Part shown: one piece after another, positions 6,132-7,502 of the stretch | How positions within the stretch are numbered: position 1 is the first letter of the stretch | Layout of the letters: each line of letters opens with the position of its first letter | DNA from: a virus | Taxonomy: Duplodnaviria > Heunggongvirae > Uroviricota > Caudoviricetes | DNA: 7,502 nucleotides | Strand: one strand, 5' to 3' | IMG/VR virus record: IMGVR_UViG_2778261666_000008 | Notes under the pieces: generated by a model | Databases searched by the model: none | The model's input: only the letters and a program-made list of their open reading frames with translations | Told to the model about the DNA's origin: nothing | Position numbers and translations under genes: made by a program

Positions 6132-7502
6132 ATGTTTATGAAAAAAATATTCGCAGCCTCTGTTATATTTGCAGTTTCAGCAAATACTTATGCATATAAT
6201 TCTTATAATGCCGGTGATAATAGCCAGGCAACTGATAGTAATGCGACAGCTATTGGTGCATATGCAAATGCTTCAGGTTCTTCTTCTACAGCAATAGGCG
6301 CTGTTTCAAAAACCGAAGGAGCCTATAATACTGCAATTGGTTCATATTCTTCATCTCAAGGTAACTCATCGTCAGCTATTGGCGCAAATGCAAATGTTGT
6401 TGGAAATAACTCGGTAGCCATTGGTTCATTTAGTAAAGTAAACGGTGATTCAGCTATAGCAAATGGTGCGGGTAGTGAGGCAGTCGCTAATTCTACAAGT
6501 GTAGGTGCTGCGTCTAAAGCAACTGGGGAGAATAGTGTTGCATTTGGCTCTTCCGCCCAGGCGACTGCAGGAGATACATTAGCTATTGGTGTAGGGGCTA
6601 CATCTACTGCAGAAAATGCTATCTCACTAGGCTCACAGAGTGTGGCTGAACATAATAATAGTGTTGCCATCGGCGGGGGAAGTACAACTGACAGAGAGTA
6701 TAGTGTATCTTTTGGGACGGGTAATACTAATCGACAATTGACTCATGTTGCCGCAGGTACTGAGGATACTGATGGTGTTAACGTTAAGCAGCTGAAAGAT
6801 TATACTGGGAATGAGATAGCTAAAAATAATACTGTAATTAATCAAAACATCAGTAATGCCAGGAATGAATCAATGGCATATACAGACCAGCAGGTTACCA
6901 AAAACAATGCTGTGATAAATCAGAATATCAATAATGCCAAGAATGAATCAATGGCATATACAGACCAGCAGGTTACCAAAAATAATGCTGTGATAAATCA
7001 GAATATCAATAATGCCAAAAGCGAATCAATGGCATATACAGATCAGCAAGTTACCAAAAACAATGCTGTGATAAATCAGAATATTAATAATGCCAAAAGT
7101 GAATCAATGGCATACACTGATCAGGAAGTTACGAAAAATAACGGCGTTATTAATAAAAACATACAATCAGCAAAACAAGAATCATTCGCATATACTGATA
7201 CAAAGTTTAACCAAATTGATGGGAAGATAAATTCAACATTTAAGCAGTTGAATGATAAGATAGAAGCTAATGCTAAAAAAGCTAATGCAGGTATTGCTTC
7301 TGTGGCAGCAATGACCAATATCCCGTATGTGAATAACCAGACATTTAGTGCCGGCGTTGGGGTTGGTAACTATAGAAACGGTAATGCAGTAGCTGTCGGT
7401 GTTCAATATAAACTTAATGAAAACACCAATATTCGTGCATCGTCTTCGTGGAATAATACTGATGGAGCAGTAGTCGGAGGGGGTATTGCTGTAGGTTGGT
7501 AA
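6132..7502 (+). CDS. Trimeric autotransporter adhesin, YadA-like (456 aa): signal peptide, head repeats, neck, repetitive coiled-coil stalk, C-terminal membrane anchor
   Basis: Sec signal peptide (MFMKKIFAASVIFAVSANTYA). Head with many NSxAIG / SxAxG repeats (YadA-like beta-roll). Neck-like motif ...QLTHVAAGTEDTDGVNVKQL. Asn-rich stalk with 26-aa tandem repeats. Gly/aromatic-rich C-terminal ~70 aa ending GGGIAVGW, typical of YadA-type anchors. Stop TAA at 7500-7502. Which subfamily (Eib-like, Saa-like or other) cannot be decided without a search. Confidence 0.9.
   Translation: MFMKKIFAASVIFAVSANTYAYNSYNAGDNSQATDSNATAIGAYANASGSSSTAIGAVSKTEGAYNTAIGSYSSSQGNSSSAIGANANVVGNNSVAIGSFSKVNGDSAIANGAGSEAVANSTSVGAASKATGENSVAFGSSAQATAGDTLAIGVGATSTAENAISLGSQSVAEHNNSVAIGGGSTTDREYSVSFGTGNTNRQLTHVAAGTEDTDGVNVKQLKDYTGNEIAKNNTVINQNISNARNESMAYTDQQVTKNNAVINQNINNAKNESMAYTDQQVTKNNAVINQNINNAKSESMAYTDQQVTKNNAVINQNINNAKSESMAYTDQEVTKNNGVINKNIQSAKQESFAYTDTKFNQIDGKINSTFKQLNDKIEANAKKANAGIASVAAMTNIPYVNNQTFSAGVGVGNYRNGNAVAVGVQYKLNENTNIRASSSWNNTDGAVVGGGIAVGW
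6821..7199 (+). repeat. Tandem direct repeats, 78-bp unit (26 aa), about 4.9 copies, inside the adhesin stalk coding region
   Basis: Full units start at 6867, 6945, 7023 and 7101 (GAATCAATGGCATATACAGA...), with partial units on both sides. The three central copies differ by only a few substitutions and encode NESMAYTDQQVTKNNAVINQNINNAK. Confidence 0.85.

Follow-up and report, generated by a model that had tools for sequence, protein, structure and literature searches.

A complete YadA-like trimeric autotransporter adhesin gene, probably of the Yal lineage, on a decayed prophage island of cryptic-clade Escherichia

The stretch of DNA analyzed here (the window) is the 7,502-nucleotide IMG/VR virus record IMGVR_UViG_2778261666_000008. 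According to the list of its open reading frames (ORFs), the plus strand carries at 6132..7502 an ORF of 456 amino acids, the stop codon of which coincides with the final three nucleotides of the window. Judged by sequence and structural modeling, this ORF is a complete YadA-like trimeric autotransporter adhesin (TAA) of type Vc. A preliminary description, made from the letters alone, had proposed a complete and compact 456-residue TAA with all five modules, lying in very AT-rich DNA. The full domain set was recovered by Pfam and in an AlphaFold2 (AF2) model, with position 6138 as the likelier start and thus a product of 454 residues. The composition also agrees, as the gene has a guanine-plus-cytosine (GC) content of 38.8% (26% at third codon positions, GC3) and the preceding 1 kb one of 25 to 32%. 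Residues are numbered throughout according to the 454-residue form. The features of the gene and of the DNA directly upstream are as follows.

6138..7502, plus strand: TAA coding sequence, 454 amino acids plus stop; the alternative in-frame ATG at 6132 gives 456 amino acids
6138..6197, plus strand: putative Sec signal peptide, residues 1-20, MKKIFAASVIFAVSANTYA, with cleavage before Y21 (then YN), read by inspection
6198..6701, plus strand: YadA-like head, residues 21-188, twelve 14-residue repeats of a left-handed parallel beta-roll (Pfam, PDB, AF2, Foldseek)
6702..6803, plus strand: neck, residues 189-222, SVSFGTGNTNRQLTHVAAGTEDTDGVNVKQLK (Pfam PF05662), which aligns with the YadA neck in 1p9h
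6804..7313, plus strand: coiled-coil stalk, residues 223-392, one uninterrupted predicted helix without a saddle (AF2)
6822..7138, plus strand: 78-bp (26-amino-acid) tandem repeat, 4.1 copies, 91% matching (Tandem Repeats Finder)
7314..7499, plus strand: membrane anchor, residues 393-454, four beta-strands per protomer and a C-terminal Trp (Pfam PF03895)
5977..6137, plus strand: upstream segment that travels with the TAA gene in every prophage context, with a sigma-70-like site at 6033-6061

The in-frame ATG at 6138, from which the protein begins with MKK, is the annotated start in every RefSeq homolog of the TAA, and the two codons upstream of it, counted from the ATG at 6132, are not conserved in the closest Escherichia coli copies. 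The 454-residue form is therefore the likelier product. Pfam recognized the YadA head (PF05658, 69.7 bits against a cutoff of 25), the YadA stalk/neck (PF05662, 33.4 bits against 28.4), and the YadA anchor (PF03895, 32.0 bits against 22.7). By inspection, the N terminus consists of a Lys-Lys n-region (MKK), a 13-residue hydrophobic core, and T-Y-A at positions -3 to -1. The preliminary description had allowed for the loss of the signal peptide or the C-terminal anchor on closer examination, but inspection and the PF03895 match indicate that both are present.

The twelve head repeats are perfectly in register and free of insertions (repeat listing). A sequence search of the PDB matched the head to BpaC (7o23) and YadA (1p9h), with E values of approximately 1e-21, and Foldseek matched the modeled head to those of BpaC, BoaA, CbpF, and YadA. 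In the sequence, the head is followed by a neck that reads ...NRQLTHVAAGTEDTDGVNVKQLK. The AF2 model, computed for a monomer from an alignment of 23 sequences, comprises a beta-roll at residues 23-190 with a predicted local distance difference test (pLDDT) score above 90, a single unbroken helix at residues 216-392 (177 residues), and beta-hairpins at residues 403-439 in the anchor, while residues 1-19 scored below 50. The anchor was matched to the anchors of AtaA and YadA in the PDB sequence search, and the modeled C terminus to the transmembrane domains of AtaA and Hia by Foldseek. The final residue is Trp.

The stalk is built from the unit AYTDQQVTKNNAVINQNINNAKxESM. At the protein level, it holds five YTD units, four of which are near-identical 26-residue copies and one of which is diverged; beyond the 4.1 tandem copies, two diverged YTD units prolong the array to approximately 7215. 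The suggestion in the preliminary description that the repeat architecture may be distinct is thus borne out, as the stalk unit measures 26 amino acids here and 37 amino acids in Saa. Stalk hydrophobicity has a main period of 3.70 residues, near 26/7, with far lower power at 3.5. Coiled coils with a period above approximately 3.63 should supercoil in a right-handed sense, a geometry also seen in the pentadecad portion of YadA's stalk, and a right-handed supercoil is therefore expected for the TAA stalk. The last YTD segment, QESFAYTDTKFNQIDGKIN, aligns weakly (E values of approximately 0.24 to 0.33) with the YadA fragments 3h7x, 3h7z, and 3lt7, which cover the right- to left-handed transition. 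Five YTD units (454 amino acids) are present in the window, in contig L005, and in strains EC11, KY180, and STEC711, whereas four (428 amino acids) are found in contig L006 and in the platypus strain A2; these contigs are among the related ones reached via the 233-amino-acid ORF that neighbors the gene in the window. The TAA genes of C41 and ZYB62 are approximately 156 bp shorter (about 402 amino acids). Across homologs, the number of stalk repeats ranges from 3 to 5, and every change is in frame.

The window is 99.96% identical to L005, which encodes an identical 454-residue TAA; a look-up of the exact 454- and 456-residue sequences gave no match. WP_077784021.1, annotated as 'YadA-like family protein', shares 96.9% amino acid identity with the window TAA and is encoded, together with close variants (92 to 97% nucleotide identity), on the chromosomes of 29 of the 5,426 complete E. 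coli genomes. Copies on IncF plasmids of cattle and sheep isolates are 77 to 83% identical at the amino acid level, and a plasmid copy in E. albertii is 71% identical. Outside Escherichia, the species-representative genomes yielded a Proteus columbae TAA as the closest relative (53.5% amino acid identity over the full length). Its signal peptide, head, neck, and anchor match those of the window TAA (the anchor is 77% identical), and its stalk also contains YTD repeats. However, the P. columbae stalk unit is 39 amino acids long, the head is two repeats shorter, and the gene occupies a conserved chromosomal site next to TetR-family and deaminase-like genes instead of a mobile element. At that site (L012 7995-9377), the gene is located downstream of the TetR-family gene, with an RTX-toxin-like gene close by. 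P. penneri ATCC 33519 carries its copy at the corresponding position (L013 7995-9009); in this copy, the reading frame is shifted and most stalk repeats are gone.

In the phage collection, a full-length relative was absent from all sequenced phages, EibE being the best match at 24.7% identity. Short proteins that correspond to the final stalk segment plus the YadA-type membrane anchor occur in lytic phages of Proteus, Cronobacter, Salmonella, and Erwinia. These proteins are 37 to 43% identical to TAA residues ~322-442, and their annotations vary between 'tail protein' and 'agglutinating adhesin'. In Proteus phage Privateer, the 194-amino-acid anchor-like gene (2785-3369) is surrounded by small hypothetical genes and does not lie with the tail genes.

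Two new lineages of related adhesins, Cla and Yal, were recently defined (Kotaka et al., Nat Commun 2026, PMC13534694). Yal proteins are nearer to Saa than to Eib and have neither a saddle nor an N-terminal domain (PMC13534694). The window TAA likewise has a lollipop shape without these two elements and scores higher against Saa than against EibE. YalA was reported for both plasmid pKY178 and the KY180 chromosome (Kotaka et al., PMC13534694), and the chromosome of JNEC-KY180, the strain sequenced in that study, encodes WP_077784021.1. The YalA of pKY178 has the same architecture as the window TAA, with another repeat unit of ~29 amino acids, and its gene had no megablast match on any chromosome among the complete genomes, KY180 included. 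As the pKY178 YalA thus has no near-identical chromosomal copy, the KY180 chromosomal protein with 96.9% identity is likely to be the 'chromosomal YalA'. The window TAA therefore probably belongs to a lineage that was named Yal in 2026 but is uncharacterized.

Comparison of the genomic contexts indicates that the gene moves between them. Relative to the E. coli prophage copies, homology sets in at ~5974-5977, ~155 bp 5' of the TAA start, and homology to the STEC711 type starts ~960 bp 5' of it, while homology between contexts stops no more than 50 bp past the TAA stop codon. The TAA gene therefore moves as a compact unit together with its own upstream region. In EC11, KY180, and A2, the gene lies at a prophage end after tail-fiber and tail-fiber-assembly genes, by uspF-ompN. 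In RM11911 it adjoins a second prophage, in STEC711 it is located in an island rich in insertion sequences (IS) beside asrABC, and on an IncF plasmid it lies beside IS3 and an AIDA-type autotransporter. The flanking fli genes of the host are at most 89.6% identical to those of any of 5,192 matching E. coli genomes, and the neighboring 233-amino-acid ORF is otherwise found in E. marmotae and unclassified Escherichia. The host is therefore most readily identified as a cryptic-clade Escherichia and not E. coli. As the TAA gene is 96.7% identical to its E. coli copies whereas the core genes reach at most 89.6%, a recent horizontal transfer of the gene appears to have taken place.

Among characterized adhesins, YadA offers the closest overall parallel in size (454 amino acids against the 459 positions of the NCBIfam YadA profile) and in module order. 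Both proteins have a beta-roll of NSVAIG-type repeats, a neck, a non-heptad stalk, a YTD transition motif, and a four-strand anchor, and their heads are 36% identical over 179 aligned columns. In contrast to the collagen-binding YadA (1p9h, head; 3h7x and 3lt7, stalk; 2lme, anchor), the TAA has a head of twelve uninterrupted repeats and a stalk made from a 26-amino-acid tandem repeat with YTD in each unit, and its gene is carried on Escherichia mobile elements and not on pYV. Membership in YadA was rejected, as the protein scored 121.9 bits against NCBIfam NF033478 with a cutoff of 750. Likewise, eYadA of avian pathogenic E. coli was rejected, with the anchor alone in common (30% identity over 92 amino acids). 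Near-identity to an already characterized adhesin, which would have refuted the preliminary description, was not found for the TAA in any of these comparisons.

The preliminary description had also stated that the protein could be assigned neither to the Eib-type nor to the Saa-type adhesins, and the comparisons with both families agree with this. An Eib-type, prophage-borne TAA that binds the Fc portion of immunoglobulin G (IgG) or IgA through its C-terminal coiled coil would fit the location of the E. coli copies, as eib genes are also found at the distal prophage end after tail-fiber genes. The site at the prophage end and a YadA-like head, neck, and anchor are features that the TAA has in common with Eib (EibA and EibC to EibH, including EibD) and with Cla (ClaA/B). 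However, blastp identity to EibE was only 25%, in a high-scoring segment pair of 64 bits, and proteins with less than 50% similarity fall outside Eib by the threshold of Kotaka et al. (2026); Eib membership was therefore rejected. The match to the EibD sequence 2xqh had an E value of only 1.2e-5 and stopped short of the immunoglobulin-binding stalk segment, and no alignable similarity to Eib was found over the stalk segment that contains the IgG Fc-binding residues (D378 and Y388 in EibD, D391 in EibG). The saddle and the N-terminal domain are features of Eib, the saddle being also present in Cla, and proteins without both were placed outside Eib (Kotaka et al., PMC13534694). The AF2 model of the TAA stalk is one continuous helix with no saddle, and the repeat listing contains no N-terminal domain before the beta-roll, which begins directly after the signal peptide. 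Furthermore, even the saddle-bearing Cla proteins mediate chain-like adhesion and do not bind IgG Fc (Kotaka et al., PMC13534694). We consider an Eib-type protein highly improbable on these grounds, and immunoglobulin binding by the TAA is unlikely.

A divergent autoagglutinating adhesin of the Saa type, with the same function as Saa, has somewhat more in its favor. Saa of pO113 scores above Eib (110 against 64 bits), both stalks consist of tandem Y-T-D/N-containing repeats in variable number, and both proteins are short TAAs of animal-associated Escherichia or of strains without the enterocyte effacement locus (LEE), with plasmid-borne copies or relatives. TAAs with YadA-like heads commonly autoaggregate (PMC7568254), and the TAA may have an autoaggregation phenotype in common with Saa. 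In contrast, the 29% identity to Saa (blastp) is confined to neck, stalk, and anchor, within the C-terminal 300 residues. The alignment begins only at Saa residue 193, and the ~190-residue N-terminal region of Saa has no counterpart in the TAA. Because of this missing region, the low identity, and the difference between repeats of 26 and 37 amino acids, Saa membership was rejected, and a divergent Saa variant with the same function seems unlikely. Under a further alternative, the gene would be silent or decaying cargo, acquired horizontally, repressed by H-NS, and without a present role in the host. The gene and its upstream DNA are indeed very AT-rich, the island no longer retains its integrase and bears an IS, the gene is rare (the 29 complete E. 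coli genomes mentioned above), and the copies in RM11911 and P. penneri are truncated or frameshifted. However, all cryptic-clade contigs and the majority of the E. coli copies retain an intact ORF, and the in-frame changes in repeat number preserve the protein. The ratio of nonsynonymous to synonymous substitution rates (dN/dS), calculated by the Nei-Gojobori method, was 0.12 (dS, 0.11) against the KY180 gene, 0.06 (dS, 0.32) against STEC711, and 0.05 (dS, 1.7) against the plasmid copy of pRHB07-C17_2, and it ranged from 0.03 to 0.12 when head, stalk, and anchor were taken separately. Ratios of 0.05 to 0.12 against homologs indicate that the ORF is not a chance one, and their persistence at dS values of 0.3 to 1.7 speaks against silent cargo, which we regard as quite unlikely. 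By this sequence-based measure, the TAA gene is under strong purifying selection. Low dN/dS in all domains together with in-frame repeat changes argues for a protein that is maintained and expressed and not a relic. The chromosomal and plasmid TAAs differ mainly in the signal peptide and in head repeats one to four, with the membrane-distal tip being 60% identical and the remainder 85 to 90%.

The TAA of the window is thus likely to function as a type Vc adhesin, belonging to a YadA-like lineage apart from Eib and Saa, probably Yal, and to be carried as mobile cargo. Several observations weigh against this interpretation. Promoter and terminator scans of the region upstream of the TAA gene gave nothing above chance, the sigma-70-like site included, and silencing of this AT-rich promoter region by H-NS is possible. 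The island itself is decayed, with a frameshift in the integrase and an IS insertion. Furthermore, the AF2 model is monomeric, and its anchor has a pLDDT of only ~50. With respect to the lineage, Yal was described as a 'function unknown adhesin-like' lineage (Kotaka et al., PMC13534694), and the plasmid YalA of pKY178 is only 39 to 43% identical to the window TAA, for which the name Yal is a probable one.

The surroundings of the gene are those of a decayed prophage remnant or island at the fliE side. A prophage remnant at the Rac site was rejected, as the island lies between fliE and zinT/yedFED/amyA. In L005, the order is fliE, a frameshifted integrase, a DUF1233 excisionase, two small ORFs, the 233-amino-acid Invasin_D4 ORF, a theta-like fragment by an IS3-family element, ~1 kb of AT-rich DNA, and the TAA gene, followed by a spacer of ~1.1 kb, two small genes, zinT, yedF, yedE, yedD, and amyA. 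The preliminary description had placed the TAA a few kilobases from an integrase and an IS element. Both are present, but the integrase is a frameshifted pseudogene within the decayed island. The corresponding features of the window are as follows.

1..1452, minus strand: left end of the prophage remnant, with a tyrosine integrase at 1-1113 (frameshifted) and a DUF1233 excisionase at 1159-1452 (Pfam)
3632..4806, minus strand: IS3-family transposase, orfA at 4495-4806 and orfB at 3632-4459 (Pfam HTH_Tnp_1 and rve)
5076..5976, no strand: AT-rich noncoding spacer from the IS side to the TAA cassette, of which 5167-5976 is common only to the STEC711-type island (blastn)

Compared with the intact 434-amino-acid copy in L006, the integrase carries a 1-nucleotide frameshift at approximately residue 320 (tblastn), and its 3' end, the last ~63 codons, lies outside the window. 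As a consequence of the frameshift, the island is probably immobile. A DNA polymerase III theta-like fragment (PF06440, HolE/HOT type; 3481-3741, minus strand) adjoins and overlaps the IS3-family element, which apparently truncated the theta-like gene; fragments of 52 to 68 amino acids are called in related contigs. Between the IS and the AT-rich spacer, a 68-amino-acid ORF (4869-5075, plus strand) is called in all related contigs and had no Pfam or NCBIfam match. The 233-amino-acid ORF (2588..3289, plus strand) is low in GC, matches Pfam Invasin_D4, and has a distribution restricted to cryptic-clade Escherichia (E. marmotae and relatives). This ORF is bracketed by a perfect 58-nucleotide inverted repeat (2364-2421/3375-3432) with 953 nucleotides between the arms. 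This unit resembles an invertible segment or an inserted cassette, and no invertase gene is located nearby.

If the TAA behaves according to established TAA biology, the Sec signal peptide would direct its export to the periplasm, where the four-strand C termini of three protomers and the beta-barrel assembly machinery (BAM) would form a 12-strand barrel in the outer membrane. The passenger would then cross the barrel and form a trimeric coiled-coil stalk of ~170 residues with a 12-turn beta-roll head on its tip. The head would be the adhesive part, directed at host or matrix surfaces or at other cells (autoaggregation), while the stalk would set its reach, with gain or loss of the 78-bp repeat altering the length in steps of 26 residues. 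The heads of YadA, BpaC, BoaA, and CbpF attach to ligands of the host or matrix or to other bacteria. As the TAA head most resembles these, its function is probably adhesion or autoaggregation, possibly also serum resistance. Domain architecture, purifying selection, repeat-number polymorphism, mobility, and separation from Eib, Saa, and YadA are shown by the data, whereas surface display, trimerization, an adhesive role, and the lack of immunoglobulin binding are inferred. The unit of transfer is a self-contained cargo cassette made up of the ORF, ~155 bp of the DNA preceding it, and at most 50 bp of the DNA after it. This cassette sits at prophage ends, in IS islands, and on IncF plasmids and appears to have passed recently between Escherichia species, with deeper relatives in Proteus.

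It is conceivable, though doubtful, that the gene represents a distinct class of adhesin, namely, a Proteus-derived TAA with a YTD-repeat stalk that is distributed in animal-associated Escherichia as a promoter-bearing cassette, has a ligand or phenotype of its own, and has its stalk tuned in 26-residue steps. In that case, the ligand of the 12-turn head, or the phenotype that it confers (for example, chain-like adhesion, serum resistance, or phage exclusion), would be unlike those of YadA, Saa, Eib, and Cla, and the 26-residue steps of the stalk would serve to clear O-antigen or capsule. On the interpretation favored here, that of a functional YadA-like adhesin probably of the Yal lineage, the locus leaves the current understanding of TAAs unchanged. 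TAAs of LEE-negative Shiga toxin-producing E. coli and of environmental Escherichia are candidate colonization or serum resistance factors, and to these the locus adds a tight cassette that crosses Escherichia species boundaries, is under purifying selection, and is polymorphic in stalk length by steps of 26 residues.

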